64,000 nt of DNA from Gemmatimonadota bacterium (GTDB lineage Bacteria > JAAXHH01), in NCBI GenBank assembly GCA_009838645.1, contig VXRC01000045.1, positions 1,594 to 65,593 on the forward strand, in the 5' to 3' direction. Shown here in pieces: positions 9,438-63,362 of the stretch. Both the position numbers and the translations under genes were made by a program. The notes beneath the pieces were generated by a model that had not been told where the DNA came from, did not search any database, and saw nothing but the letters and a program-made list of their open reading frames with translations. Positions within the stretch are counted from its first letter, which is position 1. The number at the start of each line of letters is the position of its first letter.

Positions 9438-9447
9438 TACGGTAAGG

Positions 9448-10290
9448 TCAGAAACGGGCACTTTCCGCGTCGGGGAGGATGCCGCCTTCATCCCTGGGCA
9501 GGACCGAAAGGGGCAGGGCAATAGAGGAGCCCGCATCGACCGGGAGCGTGATCCCCGTGATCCAGCGGGATTCGTCGCCGGCCAGGAAGGCGGCCGCGTT
9601 GGCCACGTCCCAGGCCGTGCCCTCGGTACCCAGCGGCGTGGAGCGCCGCCGGAGTTCCCGGTGCGCGTCCGAGAGTTCGGCGGTGAAGGACCCGTGTAGG
9701 TGCCCAGGGGCGATGCAGTTCACGCGGATCCCGTCCTTGCCGTGCTGTACCGCCATGTTGATGGTCAGGGCGATGACCCCGCCCTTGGAAGTCTCGTAGG
9801 CGACGTTGTACGACCATCCGCTCCGGAATCCGTCGATGGACGCCACGTTGATGATGGATCCTCCCCCGGAATCCATCATTGCCGGTATGGCGAACCGGCT
9901 TGCGAGCATCATGGCCTTGAGGTTCACCGCCATGATCTCGTCCCAGTGCTCCTCTTGCACGTCCACCACCGTACCCGGATGGCTGAGACCCACGTTGTTG
10001 AAGAGGATGTGCAGCCCGCCGTACCGGTCCACCGCGGTCTCGGTCATGGCCCGGCAGTCCGCCGACCGGGTCACGTCCCCGGCGAAGACCGACGCCGTGC
10101 CCCCTTCTTCCTCGATGACGGCCAGCGTCTTTCCGGCGTTCTCCGCGCTTCGGTCCGCCAGCAGCACCTTCGCGCCTTCTCGGGCGAGGAGCACGGCGGT
10201 CGCCTGCCCGGTGCCCGCCACGTCGCTATGCGCGCCCGCGCCCGTCACGACGGCCACCTTGTCGTCCAGACGGGGTTTACGAGGGTTCAT
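9448..10290 (-). CDS. SDR-family oxidoreductase
   Basis: True start MNPRKPRLDDKVAVVTGAGAH (TGxxxGxG). Downstream YxxxK is consistent with the SDR active site. Its ATG overlaps the TGA of the upstream SDR by 1 nt (TGATG). The 233 codons upstream in ORF 9448..10989 are a Gly/Arg-rich open-frame artifact. Confidence 0.8.
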   Translation of the reverse strand: MNPRKPRLDDKVAVVTGAGAHSDVAGTGQATAVLLAREGAKVLLADRSAENAGKTLAVIEEEGGTASVFAGDVTRSADCRAMTETAVDRYGGLHILFNNVGLSHPGTVVDVQEEHWDEIMAVNLKAMMLASRFAIPAMMDSGGGSIINVASIDGFRSGWSYNVAYETSKGGVIALTINMAVQHGKDGIRVNCIAPGHLHGSFTAELSDAHRELRRRSTPLGTEGTAWDVANAAAFLAGDESRWITGITLPVDAGSSIALPLSVLPRDEGGILPDAESARF

Positions 10291-48338: not shown

Positions 48339-48340
48339 AA

Positions 48341-48862
48341 ATGTGTATGGTGAAAAACAAGCCCAAGATCGTAATGGATTCAACAGTGATAGTCAGTCTA
48401 TTACGTACAGATCGCTTAGCAATATTCAGCCGATTTGCCCACGGTCGTCTGCTGATAACAAACCATGTATTAGTGGAGATAACAAACTGTTTCCCCGATC
48501 AATTGAAGTCATTTGAGTATCTGGTTGATCGCGGGATTTTAAAGCAGATCTCTGTCAGTAACAAGGACGAACTGTTGGTGTTCCGTGATCTATGTAAACT
48601 AAACACGTTGGGTATTGGTGAATGCGCTGCCATTGCGGTTGCTGTAACAGGAAATCGAATCTTGGCGATAGATGGTAGATGTGCCTCAAGTCAAGCCAGA
48701 AGGATGCAACCAGATCTTCGCATTTTAAGCACCAAGAATCTAATGGATACTTTGCTTAAGAATAACGTGATGGATGAAAACAGACTCAAGACAGCATTAA
48801 ATGCACCATTTAATACGAGTTCCGACCGACCCCCAAACACAGGCGTCGTGGAGTCTTCTTAG
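48341..48862 (+). CDS. PIN-like domain protein (resembles DUF3368/COG2405-type PIN nucleases)
   Basis: KIVMDSTVIV (beta1 Asp), VLVEIT, LGIGECAAIAVAV...LAIDGR pattern. ATG lies 3 nt after the stop of the HTH-ImmA gene. An alternative TTG start at 48335 overlaps that stop. Confidence 0.5.
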   Translation: MCMVKNKPKIVMDSTVIVSLLRTDRLAIFSRFAHGRLLITNHVLVEITNCFPDQLKSFEYLVDRGILKQISVSNKDELLVFRDLCKLNTLGIGECAAIAVAVTGNRILAIDGRCASSQARRMQPDLRILSTKNLMDTLLKNNVMDENRLKTALNAPFNTSSDRPPNTGVVESS

Positions 48863-48928
48863 ATTGTCAACTGTTTACCTTTTGAAGTCAGTCTGATTAG
48901 AAACCATTGACTCGGTAGATGACAAATT

Positions 48929-49849
48929 ATGCCCGATAGCAAAAAGTTTTACGTTCTTGCTTTGGATGGTGGCGGTACAAGAGGGGTATATTCCGCGCAA
49001 CTTCTTTCCAAGCTTGAAACGACATTGGGACGTAGTATCAGAGACTGTTTCCATCTTATAGCTGGATCAAGCACCGGTTCAATTGTAGCGGGTGCGGCTG
49101 CAACAGGTATAAAGATGGAAAAAACCGTTGGTTTTTTTGAGAAATCGGCCAAAAGGGTATTCAAGAAACGTTTTTATCGATGTGGATTAACAAAAAGTAA
49201 GTACCGAAATGAGCAACTTAGGGAAGTTATTACAGATTCACTTCCTTCAATAACTCTTGGCGAAATTGAAACACCGCTGATGATAACTGGTTCCGATACG
49301 AGTACCGGCAAAGCGAGGGTATTCAAGTCAAGATACTTAAAGCAACTTGGAGAACCTTACGTAATGGATGGGAACTTGCTATTGAGCAAAGTGATTCTAG
49401 CTTCGTGTTCCGCACCAACATTTTTCGATCCAACAGATATCGATGGTCATCTAGTTGTCGATGGCGGTCTCTGGGCTAACAATCCTTCGATCATATCGCT
49501 TTCCGAAGCTATTTCGAAATTCAACAGGGAGGTAAAAGATGTCAAAATCCTATCCATAGGGACAGGACAGAAAACCGAAAGCATATACGCTAGACAGAAG
49601 CACTGGGGATTACTTACAGGATGGGGTGGGGTCAAACTCGTTACGTATTTCCTTGACCTGCAGTCTCAAGCTTCCAAGAACATGGCCGAGTTAGTCCTTG
49701 GTAACAACTATCTTCGTCTTAACCCATCGATAGGAGACTGGAACCTGGACGATACAGAGCACTTGGAAAACCTACGGTCTCTTGCTGACATGGATTACTC
49801 GTACAATGTAGATGCAATAAAAGCTTTTACAATTCCCGATGGAGGTTAA
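48929..49849 (+). CDS. Patatin-like phospholipase (CapV-like candidate effector)
   Basis: Oxyanion hole LDGGGTRG, nucleophile elbow AGSSTG (GxSxG), and catalytic Asp in VVDGGLWANNP. Confidence 0.85.
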   Translation: MPDSKKFYVLALDGGGTRGVYSAQLLSKLETTLGRSIRDCFHLIAGSSTGSIVAGAAATGIKMEKTVGFFEKSAKRVFKKRFYRCGLTKSKYRNEQLREVITDSLPSITLGEIETPLMITGSDTSTGKARVFKSRYLKQLGEPYVMDGNLLLSKVILASCSAPTFFDPTDIDGHLVVDGGLWANNPSIISLSEAISKFNREVKDVKILSIGTGQKTESIYARQKHWGLLTGWGGVKLVTYFLDLQSQASKNMAELVLGNNYLRLNPSIGDWNLDDTEHLENLRSLADMDYSYNVDAIKAFTIPDGG

Positions 49850-49851
49850 AA

Positions 49852-51471
49852 ATGAAACATCCTCAATACTTTGTTGATTTCCTAAAAAATGAAGTCAACC
49901 TGAATCCGGATAGGCTTGAAACACTCAAAAGTAGGTCTAGTGCAGTAGGTAAATACCTGCGCGACAACCTGGGTTTATATCGAAAGACGGAACGACAGGG
50001 ATCGTATGCTACTGAAACGATAATTAAACCAGTTAACAATCATGAATATGACGCAGACTTGCTTCTTTACATGAAGTATGATGCGGACAAAGTACCTCGG
50101 GAATACATAGAGGATGTTTACAGTTGCCTGAAGAAGAATAAAACCTACAAGGATAAGATCCACAGAAAGACCCACTGCGTTATAATTGACTATACAGGGG
50201 ATTTCCATCTGGATCTCGTCCCTTGTATTGAAAGCAACGGTAGCTCATATGTGTGTAACAGACAGACTAACAAGTACGAACTCACAGATGGGACTGGTTA
50301 TAGGGACTGGTTCATTGGTAAATCCAGAAAGACAAATGGTCACTTAAAACGAGTGGTAAGATTGCTGAAGTACCTAAGGGACATTAAGCAGACCTTTTCA
50401 ATACCCTCGATTGTATTGACGACTCTTGTCGCAAGGGAAGTACTAGAGTGGGGTGACGAGAACCGCTATAGTGATATTCCAGAAACATTGAAAACAATAT
50501 CTAATAGGATCAACGGTTTTCTACAAGCCAACCACTACTTACCTTCAATCGCTAATCCCGTCATTCCATCAGAAAACCTCGCCACAAACTGGAGCCAAGA
50601 TCAGTATACGAACTTCAGAAGCAAATTCGATCTATACAATAGTAAAATCAATGATGCTTACGCTGAAAATGACCACAACGAAAGTGTTAAAAAATGGCGA
50701 AGTGTTTTCGGTGAGAAATTCGGTAAGCTTAATGGTACAAACACGTACAGGAGTGCATTGGGTACTACAGGAATTACCTCATCCGTGACCCCTAGGAAGC
50801 AGCACGCTGGTTTGCACGAGATTGCCAGAGAATTCCCACTTAATGATAACCAGATACAGAGATTATTGGACCAGTTTCCACGTTTACGTTATGAACCAGA
50901 ACCAAAAAGGATCGTCGGTGGAATTGACTTCTGCGCCTATTACGACACAAAGTCGGGGAAACTTGAAATTGGCGACTTAGAAGATGCACGAACACATCCT
51001 CTGTTTATTTGCGATAGTTATGAAATCAAAATATGCTTGAATTCTGTGGATCTAAATGGCTGGCCAGCTGTTTATGAATCTGGTGGCAGACATTACGAGA
51101 TTGCTACCCGGTACAGAATACCTGAAGTTGATCTACATTTCTATCCGAATAGTGGTGCCTGCTGTCTTGGAATAAGAAGATCACGTCCAAGTACACGATT
51201 TGATGTCATACAGTTTGTAGCTGACCTGGTTATCCCGTTTCTATACCGACTTTCTTATGTAGATAAGTTCGGGTTGGAAGCTGCACGTAGGGATCTTTGG
51301 GGTGAGTATTCCCATTCGGATGGTATACAGGAGTATATAACAGAAATGTTAGTATACGCTGGTAAAAACCCAGGACGGAATACCAGTTGTCCGTGCGGAA
51401 GTGGAAAGAAATACAAAAACTGCCATATGAATGAGGTAGAGCATACATTGAATGCAGTAAATAGCCTGTGA
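49852..51471 (+). CDS. SMODS/CD-NTase-like nucleotidyltransferase with C-terminal extension of about 200 aa ending in a SEC-C zinc motif
   Basis: Pol-beta NTase motifs RQGSYATETIIKPVNNHEYDADLLLYM (GS...DxD) and third acidic residue in DFHLDLVPC. Downstream IPSIVLTTLVAREV resembles the CD-NTase hpShhLEhL helix. C-terminus SCPCGSGKKYKNCH. GGAGG sits 6 nt upstream, and the gene starts 3 nt after the patatin stop. Confidence 0.6.
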   Translation: MKHPQYFVDFLKNEVNLNPDRLETLKSRSSAVGKYLRDNLGLYRKTERQGSYATETIIKPVNNHEYDADLLLYMKYDADKVPREYIEDVYSCLKKNKTYKDKIHRKTHCVIIDYTGDFHLDLVPCIESNGSSYVCNRQTNKYELTDGTGYRDWFIGKSRKTNGHLKRVVRLLKYLRDIKQTFSIPSIVLTTLVAREVLEWGDENRYSDIPETLKTISNRINGFLQANHYLPSIANPVIPSENLATNWSQDQYTNFRSKFDLYNSKINDAYAENDHNESVKKWRSVFGEKFGKLNGTNTYRSALGTTGITSSVTPRKQHAGLHEIAREFPLNDNQIQRLLDQFPRLRYEPEPKRIVGGIDFCAYYDTKSGKLEIGDLEDARTHPLFICDSYEIKICLNSVDLNGWPAVYESGGRHYEIATRYRIPEVDLHFYPNSGACCLGIRRSRPSTRFDVIQFVADLVIPFLYRLSYVDKFGLEAARRDLWGEYSHSDGIQEYITEMLVYAGKNPGRNTSCPCGSGKKYKNCHMNEVEHTLNAVNSL

Positions 51472-51514: not shown

Positions 51515-52312
51515 GTGATCTCAAAACGCATACTACCCGGCGAGCGCCTCGACGACGCCCAAATGGACGTGATTCTCGAGGACTTTTGCAGGAATGGTGT
51601 CACCCTCATTCCCGGGGTGCTGACGAGGGAAGAAATCGACGCACTCCGCGAGGTCACGGACCGTTGCTTCAACGATCCCGTCCTGGCCGGCACCGATTAC
51701 TTGAGCGGCCAGGGAGACGGATTCGTGCTGCGGAACACGCTGGAGCTGGACGCGGTGTTCGTGGACATGCTGATCCGTGAACCCATCCTGAGCCTGGCCG
51801 AGGCGGTCGTGGGGGAGGACTGCAAGTTCTGCGGTCAGAACGTGATCCGCAACGCGCCGGGACAGGCGATCGATCTGTGGCACGTGGACGACCGGGTGGA
51901 GTTCCCGCTGCCGGACGACGTGCCCCGCCACGACCCACGCATCCGCATGCCCGTGCAGTGGTTCACCATCCAGATGGCGCTCACCGACATCGACACGGTC
52001 GAGGACGGCCCGACGCAGTTCGTCCCGGGCAGCCACTATTCCGGCAGGGACCCCAACAGCCAGGAAAACCCCGAGTTCGATGGACGAGGGCCGGTATCGG
52101 TCTTCTGCAAGGCAGGAGACGTCTACCTGCAGAACAACCAGTGCTGGCACCGGGGTGCGCCGGTTACGTCGAACCGGATGCGCTACGTCTTCCAGTCCCA
52201 GTATGCCGCCCGCTGGGCCCACCGGCGATTTTCCGAATACCACCACGTTCCCGTACCGCCCACGGTGCTGTCCCGGGCGTCCGACCGGTTGCGCGGCGTG
52301 CTGGGCGTGTGA
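51515..52312 (+). CDS. PhyH-family dioxygenase, paralog 3 (GTG start)
   Basis: HxD in LWHVDDRVE, FVPGSHYS, distal His NQCWHRGAP. High GC resumes here. Confidence 0.65.
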   Translation: MISKRILPGERLDDAQMDVILEDFCRNGVTLIPGVLTREEIDALREVTDRCFNDPVLAGTDYLSGQGDGFVLRNTLELDAVFVDMLIREPILSLAEAVVGEDCKFCGQNVIRNAPGQAIDLWHVDDRVEFPLPDDVPRHDPRIRMPVQWFTIQMALTDIDTVEDGPTQFVPGSHYSGRDPNSQENPEFDGRGPVSVFCKAGDVYLQNNQCWHRGAPVTSNRMRYVFQSQYAARWAHRRFSEYHHVPVPPTVLSRASDRLRGVLGV

Positions 52313-52362
52313 CGTAACGGACTCCGGCCTAGCCCCGGCATCGACCGGGTGTGCTTGGTGGA

Positions 52363-53577
52363 TTAGTGCACGATGGTCTCGAACTGCGCGGGCAGCGCCA
52401 CCTCGAGGAGTTCGAGGTCGGTCGAACGGTCTGTGAGCGACGTCTTCGTGTGCGGAGGAATGACGTAGGCGTCCCCTGCCTCGAGCCTGTGGGCAACCTG
52501 GTTTTCCCCGTTCAGCGTCACCTCCCCTTCCATGACGAAGGTGAAGAGGATATCGCCCGTGTGGCTAGTGACCTGTTCGCCGCCACCAGAGGAGCGGCCG
52601 TCCGGGCCGCCATCCGTGCCACTTCCACTCGCGTCGCTTCCACTCGCGTCGCCGCCGGCCGCACCGCTGTCCGCGCCATCCGTCGCCCGGGCGACCTGCA
52701 CCGAGGCCACGCCGTCCGTCGCCTTTCCGATGCCCGTTTCCCTCGCTTCGAACCCAGCAATTCTCCACGGTTCCCACACCGCGTCCTTGAGCTGGTGGCG
52801 GCAGAAGGTCTGACCGCCGAAGACGCGGTCGGGATTCAGCACCTGGGTCGGCAGCTCGACCTCGTGGTCGATAGTGGTCACGTGGTCAGCCGGGACGCCG
52901 ATCTCGATCACCTGGAGGTTCTCGGACGATTCGAGCACACGGTGCCGTATTTCCGGGGGCTGGATCACGCAGTCCCCGGCCTTCAGCATGAAGGGCGGCC
53001 CCTGGTCCTCGTAGACGAGCTTCACCTCGCCCCGGTAGGCGAAGATCAACTGGAATCCCACGGTGTGGTAGTGCACGACGTCGGGTACGGGTCCGGCGTC
53101 GGGTATCCGGATGTGGGAGGCGATGATGCTCCCACCCAGGCGGCCTGGTACCAGGTCGCGGTAGTGCATGCCCGCTCGGCCGATCACCCAGGGCGTGTTG
53201 TCCTTGAGCCTCCGCACGAGGAAGGCGTGCTGTGTCGGCGGGATCTCGAGCGGCGGATCGGCCTGTACGATCTCGATTCGGGTGCCGTTCGGCGCGGTGA
53301 GTTCGGTCTCGCCGCCAGCGAGGGCCGCCGGATCGCGGCACAAGATCCGCAGCGTGCCCGGTGGTTCGGAGGCATCCTGCTCCAGCCGGATGGTGAGTCC
53401 GTGGCCGGAGAGGACGGAGACCGTCGGGTAGTCGGCTGGGTAGATCTTGTCCATGCGGAACCCGAGGGTCTTCATGAAGAACCCCAGGTCCGCGGTCAGG
53501 TCCTCGGACGGCAGCCGGATCTCGGCGCCCTGGATATTGTCCGCGCGGTTGGATTGTTTGTCGTCATGTAACTGCAT
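52363..53577 (-). CDS. VOC/cupin-domain protein with Gly/Ser/Asp-rich insertion
   Basis: GAAGGAG sits 7 nt upstream of the ATG. Cupin-like strands (DILFTFVMEGEVTL...GDAYVIPP). Low-complexity insert DGADSGAAGGDASGSDASGSGTDGG comes from a 15-bp tandem repeat. Confidence 0.45.
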   Translation of the reverse strand: MQLHDDKQSNRADNIQGAEIRLPSEDLTADLGFFMKTLGFRMDKIYPADYPTVSVLSGHGLTIRLEQDASEPPGTLRILCRDPAALAGGETELTAPNGTRIEIVQADPPLEIPPTQHAFLVRRLKDNTPWVIGRAGMHYRDLVPGRLGGSIIASHIRIPDAGPVPDVVHYHTVGFQLIFAYRGEVKLVYEDQGPPFMLKAGDCVIQPPEIRHRVLESSENLQVIEIGVPADHVTTIDHEVELPTQVLNPDRVFGGQTFCRHQLKDAVWEPWRIAGFEARETGIGKATDGVASVQVARATDGADSGAAGGDASGSDASGSGTDGGPDGRSSGGGEQVTSHTGDILFTFVMEGEVTLNGENQVAHRLEAGDAYVIPPHTKTSLTDRSTDLELLEVALPAQFETIVH

Positions 53578-53589
53578 CGGCCTGCTCCT

Positions 53590-54711
53590 TCAACCTTTGA
53601 ATCGATACTTCTCCACGACGTCCATGTTCAGCTCCGTTCCCAGCCCGGGTTTCTCGGGAAGCCGGAAGTAGCCGCTTTCCACGACCGGCGGATCGGTCAG
53701 CAGGTCGTCGCGCCAGGGGGCGTCCCACTTTTCGTCCACGAACTCGAGCACCAGGGCGTTCGGGATGTTGGCCATGACGTGGAGGCTCGCAGTCGTCGAC
53801 AATGCGCTGTTCGGATTGTGGGGCGAGACCTGCATATAGTAGCTTTCGGCCATGGCGGCGATCTTCTTGGTCTCCATGATGCCGCCCGTGCGCACCACGT
53901 CCGGCATGATCATGTCGACGGCCTGGGCGGCGATCAGGTCCCGGAAGCCGAAGCGCGTGTACCGGCGCTCGCCCACGCACACCGGCACGTTGACCGACGC
54001 CGTCACCCGGGCCAAGGCGTCGATGTTCTCCGGGTGGACGGGCTCCTCGTAGAACAGCAGGCCGATTTCCTCCAGCCGGTTGCCGATGCGGATCGCGGCG
54101 CTCGTGGTGTACCGGCATCCCACGTCGGTGCAGAGGTCCACCTCGTCGCCCACGGCCTCGCGGCACCGGCGCATGTGTTCCAGTGCGAGCTTTTCTTCGC
54201 GAAGCGTGACGGAACGCGGTGAATCGATACGCTCCCCGTTGGCCAACTGGTCGGCGGGGAAGTACGCCTTGATGGCGGTAACGCCCTTCTCGGCCAGCGC
54301 CGCGCATTCCTCCGGGTTGGACGCATGGCTGTAGAACCGGATGCGGTCGCGGCACGGTCCGCCGATGAGGTTGTAGATGGGCTGCCCGGTGACCTTGCCC
54401 ACGATGTCCCACAGGGCGATCTCGATGCCGCTGACGGCCGCGATGACCGCGCCGGTCTGCCCGATCTGCTCCAGGGCGTAGTACATGCGATGGTACAGGT
54501 ACTCGATGTGGAAGGGATTTTCGCCGATGATGAGCTTGCCCAGTTCCTCCACGGATTGGGCGATGATCGTACCGCCCGGCCAGTTCGTGGCGTCCCCCAG
54601 GCCCACGACGCCCTCGTCGGTATGGACCTGGACGAAGATCCATGGCGATCCGATGTCCCGGGTTTTGCGCCAGGACTCTACCAGATGAACTTTCACATCG
54701 GTGATTTTCAC
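53590..54711 (-). CDS. Enolase-superfamily MR/MLE enzyme (acid-sugar dehydratase-like)
   Basis: GTG start with GGAGGA 5 nt upstream gives MKITDVKVHLVESW... Typical MR/MLE N-terminal capping domain plus a barrel with metal ligands (...DVGCRY..., EEP, ...D...). 373 aa. Confidence 0.75.
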   Translation of the reverse strand: MKITDVKVHLVESWRKTRDIGSPWIFVQVHTDEGVVGLGDATNWPGGTIIAQSVEELGKLIIGENPFHIEYLYHRMYYALEQIGQTGAVIAAVSGIEIALWDIVGKVTGQPIYNLIGGPCRDRIRFYSHASNPEECAALAEKGVTAIKAYFPADQLANGERIDSPRSVTLREEKLALEHMRRCREAVGDEVDLCTDVGCRYTTSAAIRIGNRLEEIGLLFYEEPVHPENIDALARVTASVNVPVCVGERRYTRFGFRDLIAAQAVDMIMPDVVRTGGIMETKKIAAMAESYYMQVSPHNPNSALSTTASLHVMANIPNALVLEFVDEKWDAPWRDDLLTDPPVVESGYFRLPEKPGLGTELNMDVVEKYRFKG

Positions 54712-54761
54712 AGACTTCCTCCGGGCGTCATCCAGGCTGCGCGCGGTTCGAGCCGCCGCCC

Positions 54762-55565
54762 TCAGTCCCGCCGCAGGTGGCTGAACTCCGGTTTGGGACC
54801 GCCCTCTTCCCGGTCCCACTGCCACAGTTCCGTGTAGGGAGACTGGGCCTGGAAACCAAAGATGACCGGTCCGTCCTCGCCCGCCCGTTCGAGCACGTCG
54901 GGCTTCACCACGCGGGCCATCTCGTATTCGCACTTGGTCCAGCGGCGCCGCCAGGGGCTGAGCACCGCGTAACGCGGCTCGTCCGTCTGGTTCTTCGTCG
55001 TGCCGTGCCAGGTGTTCACGTCGAAAAGCACCAGCGATCCTTCCGGGGCCACGGCGGTCCGGGCATTGTCGTAGGCCGAGTCGGGCACGTCCAGGTACTC
55101 GTAGCGGTGGCTGCCGGGAACGAACTCGGTGGCGCCGTTGAGTTCAGTGAAGGGACTCAGGCAGAAGATCACGTTGAGCGCGATCGAATGGCTGGTGATC
55201 CGCCGGCCTTCGTCGGCTTCGGGCATGGAAGCCTCGCGGTTGTGGCCGGTAATGCCGCTGTCGGAATGCAGGCCGTGACCGCCCTCTCCGGGCATCACGA
55301 CCGACCCGTACACGGCGCTCAGGAGCGCGTCGGAACCCAGGAAGTGGCGGACCAGCCGCAACAGGTCGGGCAGCTGGTAGAACCGCTCGAAGACCCGTGC
55401 CTTGTTGAACAGCCACTCGAAACTGCCCCGTTCCTTGTCGGGGTAACGGGCCTTCAGTTCCCTGCGCGCTTCGGCGCACTCGTCCGCGGTCAACTGGTCC
55501 GTCAGGATGGTGTAGCCCTCGACCTTCAGGTCCAGCACATGGCTTTCAAATTCCGCCTCTGTCAT
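54762..55565 (-). CDS. PhyH-family dioxygenase, paralog 4
   Basis: GLHSDSG (HxD), FVPGSHRY, NTWHGTT. Confidence 0.7.
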   Translation of the reverse strand: MTEAEFESHVLDLKVEGYTILTDQLTADECAEARRELKARYPDKERGSFEWLFNKARVFERFYQLPDLLRLVRHFLGSDALLSAVYGSVVMPGEGGHGLHSDSGITGHNREASMPEADEGRRITSHSIALNVIFCLSPFTELNGATEFVPGSHRYEYLDVPDSAYDNARTAVAPEGSLVLFDVNTWHGTTKNQTDEPRYAVLSPWRRRWTKCEYEMARVVKPDVLERAGEDGPVIFGFQAQSPYTELWQWDREEGGPKPEFSHLRRD

Positions 55566-55599
55566 GCCATGGTCCCTCTTACCTTGTAAATGTCAGAGT

Positions 55600-56415
55600 C
55601 TAACGTCCTGCCAGATCGTCGCCCAGGTCGGTCGCGTCCACCTTGCCCTTCTCCAGGCTCACGCCGACAACGAATAGTTCGAGGTCTTCGCCGGTATGGT
55701 TGTAGATGCCGTGGGCTCCGCCCATGCGATTCGGGATAGCGTCCCCGCGGACGACCTCCTCCGTCTCGTCATTCACCGTCATCCGGCCCCGGCCGTTCAT
55801 TATCATATAGGCCTCATCGACGATCTCGTGCCGGTGGTAACCTACGGAAGTGCCTGGCGGCAGCAGTATGTGGCAGAGATACTCGAAATTCGTCTGGAAA
55901 TCCCGGCTGCCCCATACCTCCCGAAAAAACACTTCGCCCTTGCCGCCGTGGTGCCGTCGAGGTTTCAGCAGGGCGCGGTCGAAACACCCCACGGGCAGGC
56001 GATCCGTGGATTCCAGCTCGACCCCGATGCGCGGGTCGTCGAAATCCTCGTGCTTCGGTTTGCGGACCGTATCCACGCAGTGAAAATTGAAGAACCAGGT
56101 ATCCCGGTCCGTGTGGTTGTAGATGCCGTGGGACTCGCCCGAGCGCAGGGGCACCGCGGCGCCGCCGACGACTTCGGCCGTGCGGCCGTTGTGGGTGAAT
56201 TGCGCGGCGTTGTCGATGGTAACGAAAATTTCTTCCGCGTAGGTGTGGCTGTGCTGACCTATGCCGCTGCCAGGCGGGAAAATCACCGAGTGGATGAACG
56301 TCCACGGCGATTCGAAGTCACGTTCGCTGAAGCCGGGGTTGAAGTAGCTTGCCGCGGCGCCGCCGTGGCTAACGCCCAGGTGCATCTCTTCACGCCTGGT
56401 ATGGGTAATCCGCAT
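55600..56415 (-). CDS. Bicupin protein
   Basis: Two cupin-2-like repeats: ...HSHTYAEEIFVTIDNAAQF...GESHGIYN and ...YHRHEIVDEAYMIMNGRGRM...GGAHGIYN. Confidence 0.55.
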   Translation of the reverse strand: MRITHTRREEMHLGVSHGGAAASYFNPGFSERDFESPWTFIHSVIFPPGSGIGQHSHTYAEEIFVTIDNAAQFTHNGRTAEVVGGAAVPLRSGESHGIYNHTDRDTWFFNFHCVDTVRKPKHEDFDDPRIGVELESTDRLPVGCFDRALLKPRRHHGGKGEVFFREVWGSRDFQTNFEYLCHILLPPGTSVGYHRHEIVDEAYMIMNGRGRMTVNDETEEVVRGDAIPNRMGGAHGIYNHTGEDLELFVVGVSLEKGKVDATDLGDDLAGR

Positions 56416-56506
56416 GCTGGCCGCTCCGGACTCCCGGCGATATCCTCATCCGGGGGTGTGAGCCTGCAGGAACTTCAAGGGGCATCAACCTCAAAGGGCA
56501 TCAACC

Positions 56507-57310
56507 TCAAAGGACCACTTCCTCGACAGGCTGCGTGCCGGTCTCGTAGGCGGGCCGCCACCGGTCGTGGGCCATGGACTCTTCCTCGCTCAGCCCGCAC
56601 AGCCAGTTCCAGGTGTGGATGCGGCGCCTCAGGTCCCGGTAGGATTCCACCCCGCTCGTGTAAGGCGCGGCCGGGCGATCCCGGTACGCGGGGATTTCTT
56701 CCGAATCGATCAGCCAGTCGCGCCGTCGCGGTTCCGAATTGCGGAAGTAGGAGAACTTGATCATGCTGCGGGGCTTGTGATTGAGTTTGGGACCGGCCCG
56801 GTGCCAGATGCCGTACCGGGTAATGGCCACGGTGCCGGCCTTCACGACGAGCGAAAGTTGCCCCATAAGATCGCCATAGTGGGCCAATGCGTCGCGATTG
56901 ACCGCCCGGCAGTGGGAGCCGGGCAGGATCATGGTCGGCCCGTCCTCGATATTCACGTCCTGCGGATAGTAGTAGCACTGGAGTTCGTTGATCTCGTAGC
57001 CGAGTCCTGATATGCCGTCCGAATGCCAGTCCTGTCCCGAGACCGGCTGGTCTATGAGATGGTGATGTCCCCCCGTCGGCATAAGGAAGTTGGGACCAAG
57101 GAGCGAACGAATTACGCCCGCCAACCGGGGATGGAGCAGCACTTCGCGGATGAAATCGGGTGAACCGACCGTTTCCTTCGCGGGGCCTTGTTGCAAGTTG
57201 CGGCACCGCTCGTTGTAATCGGGATCCACCATCTCGTCGAGCACGACATAGCCCTTTGCCACGAAATCCATCACGTCGTCATCGGTCATCGTCGGTTTGA
57301 TCTCCGCCAT
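56507..57310 (-). CDS. PhyH-family dioxygenase, paralog 5
   Basis: GAGGAGG sits 7 nt upstream. DWHSDGIS (HxD), ILPGSHCR, IWHRAGPK. Confidence 0.7.
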   Translation of the reverse strand: MAEIKPTMTDDDVMDFVAKGYVVLDEMVDPDYNERCRNLQQGPAKETVGSPDFIREVLLHPRLAGVIRSLLGPNFLMPTGGHHHLIDQPVSGQDWHSDGISGLGYEINELQCYYYPQDVNIEDGPTMILPGSHCRAVNRDALAHYGDLMGQLSLVVKAGTVAITRYGIWHRAGPKLNHKPRSMIKFSYFRNSEPRRRDWLIDSEEIPAYRDRPAAPYTSGVESYRDLRRRIHTWNWLCGLSEEESMAHDRWRPAYETGTQPVEEVVL

Positions 57311-57322
57311 CGGTAAGCCTCC

Positions 57323-57685
57323 TCAGTTCCACTTCTCGAGTATGAAATCGAAACCTACGTAGTCGTTTTCGAGGTCCTTGTATTCGTAGAGCTTATTGAT
57401 GGGGTACTGCACCACGCGCCATCCGTCGGCGACCGCTTCCAGGACGGATTCGTATGGCGGCTCGTCGCCCGGCAACTTGAGCTCGGGCCCCTCGCCCGGG
57501 ACGAATACCGCCCAGCCGACGATCCCGGACCGCATGTTGATCGACCGGGCCGTCAGGTACATGATCCTGAGCGGCCGCTGGTTTTCTATCAGCCCTTCAA
57601 GTTGTTCCAGGTCCCCGTAATCCAGCCCCTTCTCTTCCAATTTCTTACGACTTTCGGCAATCCATTGCCTGATTTCCGATTGCAT
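57323..57685 (-). CDS. Small hypothetical protein (first gene of the minus-strand cluster)
   Basis: 120-aa ORF ending 12 nt before the PhyH-5 start. Moderate GC. No family recognised. Confidence 0.4.
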   Translation of the reverse strand: MQSEIRQWIAESRKKLEEKGLDYGDLEQLEGLIENQRPLRIMYLTARSINMRSGIVGWAVFVPGEGPELKLPGDEPPYESVLEAVADGWRVVQYPINKLYEYKDLENDYVGFDFILEKWN

Positions 57686-57907
57686 GTCATATGCCTTTAT
57701 GTATCAGCGTGATGTCCGATATCTACAAGTGTATATGTAAGGGGAATCCGGTGTGGCTGTCCCGGATTGTAAAGGCGAAACAGGCACCATGTCAAGCATG
57801 ATTGAAGATTCCCGTCACCGGCATCCGCAATCCGCGACGGGCTTGACAGCAACACCCCGACCCCGTAAGTTCCCAAGAATCTGAAAACCGTTTTCCAGGA
57901 TAGCCAA

Positions 57908-58657
57908 ATGTCCACTTCACAGCCCCTGAACGCCCAGCAGATCGCCTACTTCAAGCTGAACGGCTACCTGGTGCTGAAGAACGTCTTCGACGAGCAGACC
58001 CTGGAGGCATGGCGGCGGCAGATCTGGCGGGCGCTCGATGGCTGCCTGGAGGACCCCGCGACCTGGCCCCGGGAGACAAGCGGTCTCGACGGATACGAAT
58101 ACGATCCGCCCGAGTCGGCCCTCGTGCACCATCCCTGCATGATGTCGATCATCGACCAGCTCAGCGGGGGACACTTCGTCGCGGGCGATGGCATACCGAT
58201 CATACGCTGGCCCGAACCGGAGCGGACGTTCGAAATCCCCAAAACAGGCCATATCGACGCCTACGGCGGTCGCTGGCTGCCCTTCATGATCGGCGCGACG
58301 ACTTATCTATACGACGTGGAACCCGGCGGCGGCGCCCTCATCTACTGGCCGGGAAGCCACCACGCCGCCCACAGGTACTTCCTGGAGCATCCCTCGCATG
58401 TGGACGGGAGTTTCCTGGAGATCGAGGGATTCTCCTGGGATGTGTTCTGCGACAACCCGGCCACCGGCGGCCGGGAATTCACCGCGAAGGCCGGCGACGT
58501 GGTGCTCTGGCACTCCTACCTGACGCACAATGGATCGGAGAACACCAGCCATTCGCCGCGTTTCGCCCTGTTCGCCCGCTGGAACCACGAGAAACACCTG
58601 GACCAGGCCTTCCGGTACGAGATTCCCGAAGACCTGTGGAAGTACTGGGCGGTGTGA
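57908..58657 (+). CDS. PhyH-family dioxygenase, paralog 6
   Basis: N-terminal QQIAYFKLNGYLVLKNVF, HIDAYGG, YWPGSHHA, LTHNGSEN. Confidence 0.7.
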   Translation: MSTSQPLNAQQIAYFKLNGYLVLKNVFDEQTLEAWRRQIWRALDGCLEDPATWPRETSGLDGYEYDPPESALVHHPCMMSIIDQLSGGHFVAGDGIPIIRWPEPERTFEIPKTGHIDAYGGRWLPFMIGATTYLYDVEPGGGALIYWPGSHHAAHRYFLEHPSHVDGSFLEIEGFSWDVFCDNPATGGREFTAKAGDVVLWHSYLTHNGSENTSHSPRFALFARWNHEKHLDQAFRYEIPEDLWKYWAV

Positions 58658-58713
58658 GCCGGCGACAAACGTGGTGTTGCAGTTAGCCAGTAACTAAAAA
58701 GCGGATATTGCAA

Positions 58714-60072
58714 ATGGATCTACGCAAACTAATCTTGGAAGACGTGAGATGTTTCGGCGGACGTCAAGAATTCGACATCCGGCCAATTACGTTTTTAGTT
58801 GGTGAGAATAGCACTGGTAAGTCCACTGCGCTTGGCTGTTTTCAAATTATCCATGATTTCATTTTTAGTAATGAAATTGGATTGAATTTCAACGTGGAAC
58901 CATATTCGATGGGTTCGTTTACGGACATCGTTAGGAGGTCTAGACCCGGTAAGACTCATTTTCGGATCGGCGTCGGATTTCAATCAGAATCATCACAAAG
59001 CGATCTGGAGTACATGCTGGTACTTTCAGCTAAAAACCGTGGATCCGAGCCAACCATACAAGAGCAGAACGTCCGTATGTCGAAAGGTGAGGTTACGTTT
59101 ATCGAAAGATCAGCTGGAGATGGTGTAGATGGCATGCAATCAGAGTACTTAAAAGGATTTGAAATAACTGATCCTCCATCTAAGGAAGGTTTTCAGAAAA
59201 CTACTGTTGTATCTGGAAGGTACCACTTGGACAAAACAGTCTTGGATTTACTGTTACCGATCAATAGATACCGACATTTGACGGCCAAGTGGCGTCCAGA
59301 GTCCATGCACGTCTTGGTTAATCTCGGCGAAAAACCTCCCGGACCCTTCGGCGGAGATTGGAATAAGTTGTTTGGGAAAGATCACTTGCTTCCATCTGAA
59401 GCATATAGTTTTGCTCCGATAAGAACTAATCCATTACGTACCTACGATCCATTAAGGGAAGATATGGATCCTGCCGGCAGCGACATCCCCATGGTTATCA
59501 GGAACATGTTTATAACCGAAAGAGACAGATGGGAAAAACTCAAAGGAAACCTTGTCGCATTCGGCAAATCATCAGGATTGTTTTCTGATGTCAATGTGAG
59601 AGTACTTGGCAATTCCTCAGGTGACCCGTTTCAAATACAGATTAAGGTAAATGGCCCCAAAGTGAATATGAAAGATGTAGGACATGGAGTGAGCCAGATT
59701 CTTCCAATACTTGTACGTATACTCGACAGTCCTCGGAACATGGTTTTCCTGATGCAGCAACCTGAGGTCCATCTGCATCCTAAGGCACAGTCAGAGTTGT
59801 CGTCTATTCTCGTTGAAGCAGTAAAGCAAAAGAAACATAGATTCGTCATAGAAACACATAGCGATCACCTGGTAAATCGGGCGCGAATCGAAATCATGAA
59901 AGGAACAATCGATCCACAGGATGTTTCGCTGATATACCTTGAACCTGTTGGTAACCGGGTCAGTGTCCATAACATTCAGTTTGATAAACTGGCGAATCTG
60001 TTGAATGTTCCTCAAGGATATAGGGATTTTTTCATCGATGAATCGGATAAGCTACTCGGTTTATCCAAGTGA
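58714..60072 (+). CDS. AAA_21/OLD-like family ATPase (abortive-infection-type ABC-like ATPase)
   Basis: Walker A FLVGENSTGKST. Walker B/D-loop MVFLMQQPEVHLHP. H-loop IETHSDH. Lies in low-GC islet 2. An alternative TTG start is at 58708. Confidence 0.75.
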   Translation: MDLRKLILEDVRCFGGRQEFDIRPITFLVGENSTGKSTALGCFQIIHDFIFSNEIGLNFNVEPYSMGSFTDIVRRSRPGKTHFRIGVGFQSESSQSDLEYMLVLSAKNRGSEPTIQEQNVRMSKGEVTFIERSAGDGVDGMQSEYLKGFEITDPPSKEGFQKTTVVSGRYHLDKTVLDLLLPINRYRHLTAKWRPESMHVLVNLGEKPPGPFGGDWNKLFGKDHLLPSEAYSFAPIRTNPLRTYDPLREDMDPAGSDIPMVIRNMFITERDRWEKLKGNLVAFGKSSGLFSDVNVRVLGNSSGDPFQIQIKVNGPKVNMKDVGHGVSQILPILVRILDSPRNMVFLMQQPEVHLHPKAQSELSSILVEAVKQKKHRFVIETHSDHLVNRARIEIMKGTIDPQDVSLIYLEPVGNRVSVHNIQFDKLANLLNVPQGYRDFFIDESDKLLGLSK

Positions 60073-60082
60073 AAGTGGAGAC

Positions 60083-60496
60083 ATGTGTCTTATCTTGGAT
60101 GCAAATAAGTTTAGTGATTACTTGAACCCCGAAGATGAAAACATGGAACCAGTTAGAAGGTGGATGAAATCCAAAGGTAAATTGGTTTACTCTCCAACAG
60201 AGAAACTAAAGCAGGAGTTAGACAGGCATAAAAAGATGAGACTGCAGATTGACGAATACCGCAAAAACGGTAGTCTTAAACAATATCCTGCACAAGAAGT
60301 TGAAAGGGTTAAAGACAGGTTACCCTCATTACAGTCAGATGATCCTGATATTATCGCTTTAGCACAAGTAGCAGAAGTTGGCCTGTTGGTTTCAGGTGAT
60401 ACTGACTTGCATGCGGATTTCAAAGCAGTAATTGGAGGGAGTGTGTATCAGACGAGAAAACACAGCCGCTTGTTGAGAAGAGATACCTGTCCTTGA
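60083..60496 (+). CDS. Small PIN/TOPRIM-like putative nuclease partner of the ATPase
   Basis: MCLILDANKF (N-terminal Asp), SPTEKL, DPDIIALAQVAEVGLLVSGDTDLHADF (C-terminal acidic motif). Begins 10 nt after the ATPase stop. An alternative in-frame start at 60038 would overlap the ATPase. Confidence 0.4.
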   Translation: MCLILDANKFSDYLNPEDENMEPVRRWMKSKGKLVYSPTEKLKQELDRHKKMRLQIDEYRKNGSLKQYPAQEVERVKDRLPSLQSDDPDIIALAQVAEVGLLVSGDTDLHADFKAVIGGSVYQTRKHSRLLRRDTCP

Positions 60497-60545
60497 TCCC
60501 CATTGCTGCCACCACTTCTATTTCATCAAAACACTCACTTCCCCC

Positions 60546-61373
60546 ATGACCTCCGCCCCCCGCTACCTCACCCAGGATCAACTGGCTCAGTTCTGGTCCG
60601 AAGGCTACCTCGTCCTGAAGGGCACGCTGGATGATGAGGTCGTCAATAACGCCCGTGGCTTTCTGCTGGACCTGATCCCGCGCGACCTGGTCATTCCGGA
60701 CCACTATCACGCGAACCACGCTCGGTTCAAGCCCCATAATCCGGACGGAAACGGCAGTTTTTTCGAGCCTGCCATGCTGCCCCTGCTGCAGAACGAGGGG
60801 CTGTATGGCGCAGCCGTAGATATCCTGGAGACCGAATACATCCAGGTCTGGGACGGCTCTGCGGGGATCACCCTGAGAAACCGTGCCATGGAGGGGCGGC
60901 TCCAGAACCTCCACCTGGACGCCGTACCCAAGGGTCCGGAGGAGTTGAACGAGGGCTTCTTGCGTACGGGAATCGGCATCGGCGGATGCTATTACCTCAA
61001 CAATGTGGAAGACAACGGCGGCGGCATCCACGTGGTGCCCGGCGCGCCGAACCGCGTTCGGGAGATCATGCTGGACGAGCCGGACGGGCTCAAGCGCAAC
61101 GACGGCTGGGGCAAAATCGTCGATTTCAGGTCGTCCATGGAGGTCACGGGGGACGCCGGCGATTACGTGCTCATGCACCACCTGATGCCCCACTCGGCGA
61201 GCGCCAATCACAATGCCTCGCCGAGAATCGCCCAGTTCACCCGTCTTCAACCCCTGTCGGAAGAAGAGGCCCGGCAGGCACCCGGCCCTGATCGGCCGTT
61301 GAGTGCGGACGCCCTGGCCACGCTGACTCCGCTGGGGCGCAAAATGTTCCGGCTGGATCCCTGGATCGGGTAA
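60546..61373 (+). CDS. PhyH-family dioxygenase, paralog 7
   Basis: QLAQFWSEGYLVLKG, NLHLDAVP (HxD), HVVPGAPN (variant of PGSH), LMPHSAS. Confidence 0.65.
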   Translation: MTSAPRYLTQDQLAQFWSEGYLVLKGTLDDEVVNNARGFLLDLIPRDLVIPDHYHANHARFKPHNPDGNGSFFEPAMLPLLQNEGLYGAAVDILETEYIQVWDGSAGITLRNRAMEGRLQNLHLDAVPKGPEELNEGFLRTGIGIGGCYYLNNVEDNGGGIHVVPGAPNRVREIMLDEPDGLKRNDGWGKIVDFRSSMEVTGDAGDYVLMHHLMPHSASANHNASPRIAQFTRLQPLSEEEARQAPGPDRPLSADALATLTPLGRKMFRLDPWIG

Positions 61374-61379
61374 CCTCAA

Positions 61380-63362
61380 GTGCCGCAACGGGATCGGATG
61401 AACGCCATGTCCTCTGAACCACCCCGGTCAAGGGGCACTGCGGCCATTACCCTGCGGGCCGGGGTCATCGGTCTCGCGCTCTCAGCCGTGGTCGCCTTCT
61501 GGGGACAGTTCTCCGCCGATCACGCCGGATACAACTATTCCACCTACGCCCATCTCCCCGCGGCGCTGCTGATCCCCTTCCTGATCCTGATCCTGGGTCC
61601 CCACGTCCTGCTCAAGCGACTGTCACCCCGGTACGCCCTGACGACGTCCGAACTGATCGTGGTCTTTGCCATGGGCATGATCGGTTCGATGGTGCCCGAC
61701 TGGGGCATGACGAGGTACCTGGTCTCCCTCATCACCGGGCCCTTCTACCATTCGAGCCCCGAGAACCGCTGGGCGGAAACGTTCTTCGACACGCTGCCCG
61801 CGTGGCTCGTGATCAGTGACAAGACCGACGCGGTCAGGGTTTTCTACGAAGGCGCCGCGCCGGGTTACCGGATCCCCTGGATGGCCTGGATCTCGCCCCT
61901 GCTGTGGTGGATGTCGTGTTTCGGCGCCCTGATGTGGACTGGCGCATGCATCGTGGTCATCCTGAGGAAGCAGTGGGTGAGCCACGAACGGCTGCGCTTT
62001 CCCCTGGGGGAGGTGGCGCTCAACCTGATGGGCGTGGGGAAGGACCGGGACGAACCGCCCATGGTCCGCACGACCGCCTTCCGGATCGGCGCCGGCCTGT
62101 CGCTGGCCGTCGTGTGCTGGAACATCGCATCCTACTGGGACATCGTTACGCCCGTCCCAATCATGGGCCCGGACCTGCTGCAAGTAAAGGTCCATCCGTC
62201 GATCCCGGATCTTCCCATCCGGCTGAACGTCTTCGTGCTCTGCTTCGCCTTCTTCATCAATGCCGAGATCCTCCTCAGCCTGTGTTTCTTCCTGCTGTTC
62301 ACCACGCTGCAGCGGGGCGTGCTGAATATGCTCGGGGTCACGGCGGCGACGACCATGTCGCCGACCGGCCTCGTGGGCACCCAGTCCATCGGCGCTCTGA
62401 TCGCCCTGGTGGCGTGGGGACTGTGGATGGCGCGCCGGCACCTGGCCGCCGTGGCCCGGCGGGCGTTCCGCAGGGATCCGTCGGTGGATGACAGCGGGGA
62501 GTTCTTCTCGTACCGGCTGGCGGTCTTCGGCCTGGTCTTCGGCCTGCTCTACCTGCTGGCCTGGCTGTACAGCATCGGCATGTCCCTGCCGGTCAGCCTG
62601 ATCCTCCTGGCGGTCCTCTTCACCATCTATCTCGGCATGGCCCGGATCGTCGCGGAGGCGGGACTTGTCGCCATGGACCTGCCGGTGAACGCCAACAACT
62701 TCACCGCGGGCATCATCGGCGCCGACAACCTGGACCCCTCCACGATCACCGCCCTGGGCATGACGAACGCCTTCGCCCGGAACTGGCGGACCTTCACCAT
62801 GATCGGGCTGTCCCACGCCGCCTACCTGCAGCGCTGGATGGCGCCGGCCACCCGGCATCTCTTCCTCTGGATATGCCTGGCCTTCGGCGTCAGCGTGGTG
62901 ACTTCCCTCTACTATTACATCAGCGCGGGATACGCCGTCGGCGCCGACAATCTCCTTTCCAAGCCGGGCGACCTCGTGCCCTTTTTCTACAACACGATCA
63001 TGACGTGGAACAGCAGCGTAAGCAGCGTATCGGACCTGGAACTGATCTTCTTCGGGAACGGCATCGTCCTGTACATGTTGATGATCCTCGGACGATTCCT
63101 GTTCCTCTGGTGGCCGCTCCATCCCATTGGCCTGGTCGCCGTGGCCGCGGACACTGTGCGATTCATGTTCCTGCCGTTCTTCCTGGCCTGGCTCATCCAG
63201 GTGATCCTGCTGCGTATGGGTGGAGGGGCGCTTTACCGAAGGGCGCAGCCGCTCTTTCTCGGCATCCTGGTGGGGTATGTCCTCGGCATGGCCCTCTCTT
63301 TCCTCGTGGACAGCCTGTGGTTTCCGGCGGCGCCGCACCAGTTCGAGTCGTTCATCAATTAA
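61380..63362 (+). CDS. Large polytopic membrane protein (about 14 TM), unknown function
   Basis: 660 aa, very hydrophobic, no soluble domains. GTG/ATG start ambiguous (61380, 61398 or 61407). Adjacent to a sulfatase. Confidence 0.5.
   Translation: MPQRDRMNAMSSEPPRSRGTAAITLRAGVIGLALSAVVAFWGQFSADHAGYNYSTYAHLPAALLIPFLILILGPHVLLKRLSPRYALTTSELIVVFAMGMIGSMVPDWGMTRYLVSLITGPFYHSSPENRWAETFFDTLPAWLVISDKTDAVRVFYEGAAPGYRIPWMAWISPLLWWMSCFGALMWTGACIVVILRKQWVSHERLRFPLGEVALNLMGVGKDRDEPPMVRTTAFRIGAGLSLAVVCWNIASYWDIVTPVPIMGPDLLQVKVHPSIPDLPIRLNVFVLCFAFFINAEILLSLCFFLLFTTLQRGVLNMLGVTAATTMSPTGLVGTQSIGALIALVAWGLWMARRHLAAVARRAFRRDPSVDDSGEFFSYRLAVFGLVFGLLYLLAWLYSIGMSLPVSLILLAVLFTIYLGMARIVAEAGLVAMDLPVNANNFTAGIIGADNLDPSTITALGMTNAFARNWRTFTMIGLSHAAYLQRWMAPATRHLFLWICLAFGVSVVTSLYYYISAGYAVGADNLLSKPGDLVPFFYNTIMTWNSSVSSVSDLELIFFGNGIVLYMLMILGRFLFLWWPLHPIGLVAVAADTVRFMFLPFFLAWLIQVILLRMGGGALYRRAQPLFLGILVGYVLGMALSFLVDSLWFPAAPHQFESFIN

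Follow-up and report, generated by a model that had tools for sequence, protein, structure and literature searches.

An ABC ATPase and a small predicted PIN nuclease in a low-GC islet of a Gemmatimonadota bacterium, probably an uncatalogued relative of two-gene anti-phage systems

Analysis of a 64-kb stretch of a Gemmatimonadota contig (VXRC01000045.1), referred to here as the window, showed that a low-GC islet at positions 58658-60545 is a real, horizontally acquired insertion between two PhyH genes. The islet encodes an ABC ATPase followed by a 137-aa protein that is apparently a catalytically intact PIN nuclease, and the two genes form an obligate unit. The pair is most probably an abortive-infection anti-phage module, that is, a conflict module in which the ATPase would be the sensor and the nuclease the effector. 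It is probably an uncatalogued relative of two-gene anti-phage systems (HEC-03, for Hma-embedded candidate 3, and Menshen) and not a new kind of system. The undescribed part is the family of its PIN protein, which has no match in PADLOC and whose member in the window has no match in Pfam.

The islet and its two genes

The GC content of the islet (1888 nt) was 0.431, against a mean of 0.641 (sd 0.017, minimum 0.593) in 517 background segments of the islet's size, from which both low-GC islets of the 64 kb were excluded; this corresponds to a z-score of -12.2. GC at third codon positions was 0.42 in the ATPase gene and 0.38 in the PIN gene, compared with 0.80-0.88 in neighbouring genes. The edges of the islet are exact, and it fills the whole space between the two PhyH genes: the stop codon of the upstream gene ends at 58657 and the ATG of the downstream gene is at 60546. 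Both flanking genes are host genes on the + strand. The upstream PhyH dioxygenase gene (57908-58657; Pfam PhyH, 1.8e-13) has 85-96% amino acid identity in syntenic genomes, and the downstream gene (60546-61373; Pfam PhyH, 1.8e-4, at the gathering threshold) has 69-94%. An initial annotation, made from the sequence of the window, had described an AT-richer 1.9-kb block between two PhyH genes, and both the shift in composition and its position were borne out.

The gene order of the window (PhyH, cupin, PhyH, a 120-aa open reading frame (ORF), PhyH, the pair, PhyH, DUF6785) was common to ten species-representative genomes and several metagenome contigs. In junction alignments with the syntenic genomes, similarity was lost directly past the stop codon of one PhyH gene and came back at the start codon of the next. 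Empty sites were found in two relatives. In contig L094 the PhyH genes are 90% and 89% identical to those of the window and lie 126 nt apart, and in the more distant L115 they are 79% and 75% identical with a gap of 107 nt. A related metagenome contig, L090, carries a different insert of 1.1 kb (positions 1732-2850, 47% GC) at the same PhyH-PhyH site, which encodes a DUF4325 (STAS-like) protein (7.5e-16) and an unrelated PIN protein (PF01850, 2.4e-11). The one site therefore has three kinds of occupancy, which suggests a hotspot for small PIN-based modules. No target-site duplication was seen at the islet junctions in the junction alignments or the empty-site comparison. A scan of the islet for sigma-70 promoters and terminators gave nothing above shuffled expectation, the host not being E. 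coli-like, and Rfam had no match in positions 57300-60900.

The first gene of the islet (+ strand) opens at a TTG at 58708 and ends at 60072, giving a protein of 454 aa. The likely true start is the ATG at 58714 (452 aa, MDLRK...), because homologues such as P0241 and P0242 begin with MDLRK or MNIRK. The protein matched the Pfam families AAA_15 (2.8e-20) and AAA_21 (3.4e-18), and the PADLOC models NsnB of Menshen (7.2e-45), PDC-M55A (2e-41), HEC-03B (2.3e-29), and AriA (5e-22 and 2e-18); HEC-01A, GajA, PtuA, and Old models matched with lower scores. In comparisons of the predicted structure, the highest values were for SMC heads (17.7 and 17.2), followed by the retron Eco7 ATPase (16.5), PtuA (16.4), the retron Ec83 ATPase (16.3), Rad50 (16.1), AriA (12.9), and GajA (12.8), while the nucleotide-binding domains of transporters reached only about 10-11. 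The profile matches and this ranking of folds indicate that the protein is a conflict-system ABC ATPase, NsnB- and HEC-03B-like, of the AAA_15/AAA_21 (OLD-ABC) clade, and they rule out an ordinary ABC transporter subunit.

Conservation of the ATPase was computed over 50 aligned homologues. The conserved parts are the N-terminal 120 and the C-terminal 220 residues, and the catalytic motifs fall within them, all encoded on the + strand. In the Walker A motif GENSTGKST (aa 32-40, 58801-58827), G32, E33, N34, S35, T36, G37, K38, and T40 are invariant and position 39 is S or T. The signature-like GxG motif GHGVSQ (aa 325-330, 59680-59697) has invariant G325, G327, and Q330; the Walker B-like motif QQPEVHLHP (aa 350-358, 59755-59781) has invariant Q350, Q351, P352, and E353; and in the H-loop region ETHSDH (aa 382-387, 59851-59868), E382, T383, H384, and S385 are invariant. 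Between the conserved parts lies a hypervariable insert (aa 121-230, 59068-59397), a candidate sensor surface, with low values of the predicted local distance difference test (pLDDT). Column entropy was 2.5-2.9 bits at aa 121-220 and 2.0 at aa 221-240, compared with 0.3-0.9 in most of the conserved blocks, and the insert is indel-rich and cannot be aligned between the allele classes found at the one chromosomal site. The C-terminal tail (aa 401-454, 59908-60069) is a candidate PIN-docking element. The NsnB model aligned to the ATPase in two stretches, the C-terminal of which covered positions 182-343 of 345 and so extended to the end of the model.

The usual acidic pair of the Walker B motif is replaced by Q350-Q351 (59755-59760), and this QQ is invariant in 50 of 50 homologues. 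It aligns with the EE of the Walker B motif of the Thermus OLD nuclease (6p74), and the corresponding pair is EQ in HEC-03. Loss of the acidic pair in ABC ATPases is expected to impair hydrolysis and to leave binding. The natural QQ resembles the classic hydrolysis-dead E-to-Q mutants of these enzymes.

The second gene (60083-60496, +) encodes a stand-alone PIN-domain protein of 137 aa with a VapC-like fold, predicted to be a Mg-dependent nuclease. It is separated from the ATPase stop codon by a 10-nt spacer (60073-60082, +) in which a Shine-Dalgarno sequence, GGAG, can be read at 60077-60080. The window protein had no Pfam match (E<=1), no PADLOC match (E<=1), and no meaningful NCBIfam match. 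It has 132 close homologues of 130-150 aa, and an exhaustive profile search at E<=1e-3 recovered representatives of 1,689 clusters built at 50% identity, a lower bound for the size of the family, of which 945 passed E<=1e-10; 305 loci are in species-representative genomes. In a set of 73 family members that are <=50% identical to one another, D6, D87, and D106 never vary, and E45, S85, D112, C2, C136, and W27 are conserved in >=90%. The Pfam PIN model PF01850 reached 43 of the 73 (best 3.9e-11). A fold search indicated a VapC-like protein, with Utp24 and Nob1 among the matches, and a PDB sequence search with the PIN profile gave chance matches only. This fold and the conservation of the D-E-D-D set (D6, E45, D87, D106, with D112 in addition) identify the partner as a PIN nuclease, apparently active (unlike the inactive PIN-like domain of NsnC), and not as a TOPRIM protein. 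The family also conserves C2 (60086-60088) and the penultimate C136 (60488-60490, in a C-P end), which may form a metal site or a disulphide joining the termini. H110 and H127 are conserved too, among close relatives.

Most of what the initial annotation had read in the two genes holds. The Walker A, QxPExHLHP, and ETHSDH motifs are present, the ATPase belongs to the clade found in Gabija, PARIS, and Septu, and also in Menshen, and the 137-aa ORF begins exactly 10 nt past the ATPase stop codon. The description of that ORF as PIN- or TOPRIM-like, from the motifs ILDANKF (aa 4-10) and SGDTDLHADF (aa 104-113), was right in the motifs and in PIN; TOPRIM was ruled out by the fold search. The profile searches that it had proposed likewise succeeded in part, as the ATPase was matched (NsnB and the PF13304-type AAA_21) and the PIN protein and DUF3696 were not.

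Pairing, genomic context, and allelic diversity

An ATPase homologue was found upstream of the PIN gene, on the same strand, in all of the 89 loci fetched via the PIN protein, so the small ORF is conserved beside the ATPase, a point on which the initial annotation had made its case depend. The two other findings that would have spoken against it, an ordinary transporter ATPase and an unshifted composition, did not occur either. A full-length ATPase ended about 6-55 nt before the PIN gene in 84 of the 89. The match was partial or displaced in the other five (L019, L043, L044, L048, and L077), consistent with degradation. The pairing also holds in three more distant loci, from a TARA contig and other metagenome contigs.

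Genomic context was counted in 82 non-redundant loci among L001-L089. Clustering of the flanking ORFs showed that the sole recurrent context other than the syntenic one was the Type III restriction-modification (R-M) system. Operons of this type contain or adjoin about 15-20 of the 82 pairs; some 15 loci read Mod, ATPase, PIN, Res, the genes being 0-29 nt apart. About 60 of the 82 have no Mod or Res nearby, and these include all of the loci at the syntenic PhyH site. In L039 and L066 related Type III Mod and Res genes adjoin each other and the pair is elsewhere. In L001, Mod and the ATPase are separated by an ORF of 136 aa, which was considered as a third component and rejected, because it stays with Mod even where the pair sits elsewhere; it is the C-terminal part of the Type III Mod. 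No conserved third gene other than Type III Mod or Res was found in the 82 loci. In L009 the pair lies between a TrwC relaxase and transposases.

The mean GC content of the pair was 0.43 (range 0.35-0.53), with host flanks of 0.36-0.66. The low GC of the pair is kept whatever the GC of the host, which suggests that copies are replaced time and again out of a common AT-rich pool of genes and do not ameliorate. The nearest 80 genomic loci, a sample biased toward close relatives of the query, came from Poribacteria, Latescibacterota, Binatia, Entotheonella, Gemmatimonadota, Nitrospirales, Dehalococcoidia, Caldilineaceae, and several proteobacterial lineages. The taxa in this list are typical sponge-symbiont groups, and it is from these names only that a link of the pair to sponge habitats is suggested. 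Two reports describe sponge microbiomes as rich in defence genes (PMC5099237, PMC8163846).

Comparison of 14 syntenic loci showed that the pair has diversified at the PhyH site. The upstream PhyH protein is 82-100% identical among these loci. At least five allele classes of the ATPase can be told apart, with identities of 82-100% between members of one class and of about 50-60% across classes: class A, the window type; class B in L005, L010, L012, L015, L092, and L093; class C in L011 and L022; class D in L014, L016, L024, and L091; and class E in L013. The PIN tree of these loci is incongruent with the ATPase tree. L005 and L015 have a 99% identical flank and 95% identical ATPases with PIN proteins only 57% identical, and L011 and L022 show the same pattern (92%, 90%, and 56%). 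The reverse is seen between the window and L010, where the flank is 96%, the ATPase 51%, and the PIN protein 85% identical.

In a sliding comparison of L005 and L015, DNA identity was 97-100% across PhyH and most of the ATPase gene, collapsed about 240 nt before the ATPase stop codon, and remained low through the PIN gene. At the protein level, breaks were located within aa 401-454 of the ATPase for L005/L015, L024/L014, and L011/L022. These three mosaics, all broken in the 3' end of the ATPase gene, indicate that the tail and the PIN gene have been swapped as a cassette, separately from the putative sensor part. Such exchange fits an interface between the tail and PIN, and it could equally reflect crossover in the conserved patch at aa 371-410.

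Two further features of the syntenic loci concern their 3' side. In L010 (~8396-9800) and L015 (~8384-9800) the 3' end of the PIN gene is broken at about codons 128-132 by an insertion of about 1.4 kb with a long ORF, presumably an insertion sequence (IS) element. The two loci are from two species and carry different PIN alleles. These insertions suggest either that the gene was inactivated because of its cost or that this position tends to attract insertions. The downstream PhyH gene is only 69-71% identical in L005 and L014-L016, compared with 85-97% for other flanking genes, and the recombination tracts that swap the islet may reach into it.

Taken together, the diversified ATPase, the hypervariable insert, and the shuffled PIN genes have the appearance of an arms-race signature, which would fit a toxin-type module of phage defence.

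The first low-GC islet of the window (47106-51471, GC 0.434) is a CBASS-type system and is followed by a PhyH gene at 51515-52312. It contains a regulator with a helix-turn-helix domain and an M78 peptidase, CapH/CapP- and RmrA-like (47106-48338), a 175-aa ORF with weak PDC-S70 matches, a patatin phospholipase effector (48929-49849), and a CD-NTase/SMODS cyclase whose C-terminal region matches PADLOC E2 models (49852-51471). Paralogues of the PhyH dioxygenase family are densely arrayed at positions 51515-63362, interspersed with a cupin and a DUF6785 membrane protein. The arrangement is conserved in some 10 uncultured species related to this one (syntenic loci L005-L016), and both defence islets lie between PhyH paralogues. 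The syntenic loci carry a sulfatase just downstream of DUF6785. The 120-aa ORF (57323-57685, -; GC 0.565) has no Pfam match and is conserved, with 80-88% identity in syntenic genomes; the only sigma-70-like promoter match of the region (57795-57766, -, 11/12) is upstream of this ORF, again in a host that is not E. coli-like.

Possible function and alternative explanations

Abortive-infection anti-phage defence is the most probable function of the pair because of its foreign GC content, its place in an apparent hotspot, its obligate pairing, an ATPase of a defence clade, the D-E-D-D set of the PIN protein, the embedding in R-M operons, and the arms-race signature. To these are added the precedents of HEC-03 and NsnB and the presence of CBASS in the other low-GC islet of the window. 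If HEC-03, Menshen, Septu, and PARIS are taken as models, the ATPase, with its SMC- and PtuA-like head, would oligomerise and keep the 137-aa PIN protein inactive, probably by means of its C-terminal tail. The hypervariable insert would recognise a phage-derived trigger, and a nucleotide-dependent conformational change would free or activate the PIN protein, which would then cut RNA (tRNA, rRNA, or mRNA, as do VapC-type PIN proteins) and stop the growth of the infected cell. The QQ pair of the Walker B motif suggests that the ATPase may be an ATP-binding switch with slow or no hydrolysis.

Several results weigh against this interpretation or parts of it. The predicted structure of the ATPase is of only moderate confidence (pLDDT 68.7). 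The HEC-03B model (PDLC04148) aligned only to aa 270-445 (profile positions 264-437 of 458), with NsnB and PDC-M55A scoring higher than its E of 2.3e-29, and Pfam DUF3696 (PF12476), the marker of the PIN-binding domain in NsnB, had no match in the whole ATPase at E<=1 or in aa 384-454 alone at E<=10. No PADLOC model, HEC-03A and NsnC included, matched the PIN protein, and alignment of its family to the HEC-03 PIN family with hhalign was weak (probability 18.5%, E 1.3e-3, 92 columns). There are no R-M genes beside the pair in the window, and searches of the PLSDB plasmids and the INPHARED phages gave no PIN homologue. Pairwise identity of ATPase segments and PIN proteins (76 pairs) gave Spearman coefficients of 0.62 for the tail and 0.72 for the N-terminus. 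This global co-variation test does not single out the tail, so its proposed docking role rests on the three mosaics and on analogy.

The main rival explanation, to which a rather low probability is assigned, is that the pair is a selfish toxin-antitoxin module without a defence role, the PIN protein being a VapC-like toxin and the ATPase an unusually large antitoxin. Such a module would persist by post-segregational killing while hitch-hiking into hotspots and R-M operons. The VapC-like fold, the tight two-gene operon, and the transposases and relaxase beside the pair in L009 agree with this, as does the DUF4325-PIN pair at the same site in L090, which looks like a classic toxin-antitoxin pair. 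The presumed IS insertions in L010 and L015 suggest a costly gene, and HEC-03 showed apparent toxicity on induction (bioRxiv 10.1101/2024.01.29.577857). However, there is no small DNA-binding antitoxin of the VapB type, the pair was found on no plasmid in PLSDB, and the closest characterised analogue is a defence system. The ATPase-first order, the hypervariable insert, and the divergent alleles would also be easier to reconcile with a sensor that diversifies under selection than with an antitoxin. The toxin-antitoxin and defence explanations are not mutually exclusive.

It is considerably less plausible that the pair is an accessory of Type III R-M systems, for example by rescuing or modulating restriction or by working on Res complexes that have stalled, with the pair of the window as an orphan remnant. 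The 15-20 or so loci in which the pair lies between or beside mod and res, with spacings of 0-29 nt, are what such a role would predict, but the window and most other loci have no Mod or Res nearby, Mod and Res are adjacent with the pair elsewhere in L039 and L066, and the embedding of independent defence systems in R-M, Hma, or BREX operons is a phenomenon already described (bioRxiv 10.1101/2024.01.29.577857). A housekeeping role in DNA repair or RNA processing, as a RecF/Rad50/SMC-like ATPase with a processing nuclease, is very improbable. SMC and Rad50 heads are among the top structural matches of the ATPase, and PIN domains act in rRNA processing too, as the Utp24 and Nob1 matches recall. 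Yet the similarity to SMC is generic and has been reported for NsnB as well (PMC12065111), and the ATPase has no coiled-coil insertion. The foreign base composition, the presence/absence polymorphism at a single site that is empty in close relatives, and the divergence of the alleles (about 50% identity) between species that share about 90% identity in the flanks also argue against housekeeping.

Within the anti-phage interpretation, a more specific proposal can be put forward only tentatively. The pair could represent a distinct, widespread, and uncatalogued defence family in which a hydrolysis-impaired (QQ), nucleotide-gated ATPase sensor controls a minimal, active PIN RNase, and in which the sensor insert and the tail-PIN cassette are recombined independently. 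Such a family would form a common low-GC gene pool that moves among many bacterial phyla, sponge-typical lineages included, and would often lodge inside operons for Type III R-M.

Comparison with known systems

HEC-03, described by Payne et al. from Pseudomonas cichorii (WP_025259138 and WP_025259137), consists of a 461-aa DUF3696-annotated ABC ATPase followed by a 157-aa VapC-like PIN protein; it protects E. coli from phages, both genes are needed, and it was plated without isopropyl β-D-thiogalactopyranoside (IPTG) owing to apparent toxicity (bioRxiv 10.1101/2024.01.29.577857). The pair of the window has the same two-gene order, with an AAA_15-type ABC ATPase of about 455 aa followed by a small stand-alone VapC-like PIN protein, and the same tight packing (a 14-nt overlap in HEC-03, a 10-nt spacer here). 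Both kinds of pair are found embedded in other defence operons, Hma in the case of HEC-03 and Type III R-M here. The C-terminal halves of the HEC-03 and window ATPases are homologous (31% identity over 127 aa by BLASTP), whereas the N-terminal half and inserts cannot be aligned, and the Walker B motif of HEC-03 reads EQPE where the window protein has QQPE. The HEC-03 PIN protein belongs to a different sequence family, related to the window PIN protein at the superfamily level only. The HEC-03A model (PDLC04147), which scores 9e-86 against the true HEC-03 PIN, had no match to the window PIN protein at E<=1 and matched just one of the 73 family members (6e-4), and single-sequence hhalign of the two proteins gave a probability of 44% over 36 columns. 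The HEC-03 protein has 157 aa with conserved C23, C27, and C150; the window protein has 137 aa and lacks these cysteines.

Menshen is composed of NsnA, NsnB, and NsnC (Millman 2022; Li et al. NAR 2025, PMC12065111). NsnB has GxG in place of SGG, a non-canonical Walker B motif, and similarity to SMC heads, and in the predicted NsnB4-NsnC2 complex its C-terminal domains clamp an inactive PIN-like domain; NsnC joins this catalytically inactive N-terminal domain to a separate C-terminal nuclease, and PIN-like modules are extensively shuffled (PMC12065111). The window ATPase shares the three features of NsnB, which is its best PADLOC model and was aligned to the model end, and shuffling of PIN modules is seen here too. 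On the other hand, no NsnA (ParB-DUF262 and ParBDB) is encoded in the window or as a conserved neighbour in the 82 loci, the NsnC models had no match to the window PIN protein, and in place of the inactive PIN plus nuclease domain of NsnC the pair has a PIN domain on its own, with D-E-D-D intact. DUF3696 was absent from all of the 120 listed ATPase homologues in precomputed Pfam annotation. Without NsnA, an NsnC-type partner, or DUF3696, membership in Menshen is ruled out.

PARIS, Septu, Gabija, and OLD have in common with the pair the ATPase superfamily and a general logic in which an ATPase oligomer controls a nuclease. Their effectors are of the TOPRIM or HNH type; here the effector would be a PIN protein, unfused and without a helicase (GajB), a retron reverse transcriptase, or a non-coding RNA, and the Walker B pair is EE in OLD nucleases. 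Membership in PARIS, Gabija, or Septu is ruled out by the wrong type of partner. In the case of PARIS, the AriA models matched the ATPase below NsnB and there is no AriB-like (DUF4435 TOPRIM) gene. The involvement of a retron or non-coding RNA, considered on account of the retron ATPase fold matches, was rejected as there is no Rfam match, no reverse transcriptase, and gaps of only about 50 nt. PDC-M55, a three-gene arrangement (FAM_00005>>FAM_02935>>FAM_00004), was rejected as well; PDC-M55A matches the ATPase, but the PIN protein is unmatched and there is no third gene. Unlike type II toxin-antitoxin systems of the VapBC type, the pair includes no VapB-type antitoxin, and the PIN protein is instead partnered by the 452-aa ABC ATPase of the upstream gene.

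The suggestion in the initial annotation of an undescribed minimal ATPase-nuclease pair therefore stands only in part: the architecture was known from HEC-03, and the PIN family is what is undescribed, in PADLOC as a family and in Pfam for the window protein. PADLOC 2.0 has no model for this PIN family and the window PIN protein is unseen by Pfam and NCBIfam, so a two-gene call cannot be made with these resources. Profiles for both genes would remedy this, above all in the annotation of defence systems in uncultured bacteria from the sea and from sponges. The four states of one chromosomal site (empty, five ATPase classes, shuffled PIN genes, and a different PIN module) constitute a natural experiment, and the natural swaps could help to map the determinants of sensor specificity and docking. 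Overall, the pair, which is among the smallest ATPase-nuclease pairs, is best filed as a variant of the ABC ATPase plus PIN kind that cannot be assigned to HEC-03 or Menshen by their models. Because its PIN protein has kept the catalytic residues that are lost in Menshen, it may provide a simple model for the gating of a PIN nuclease by an ATPase of the NsnB/HEC-03 type.

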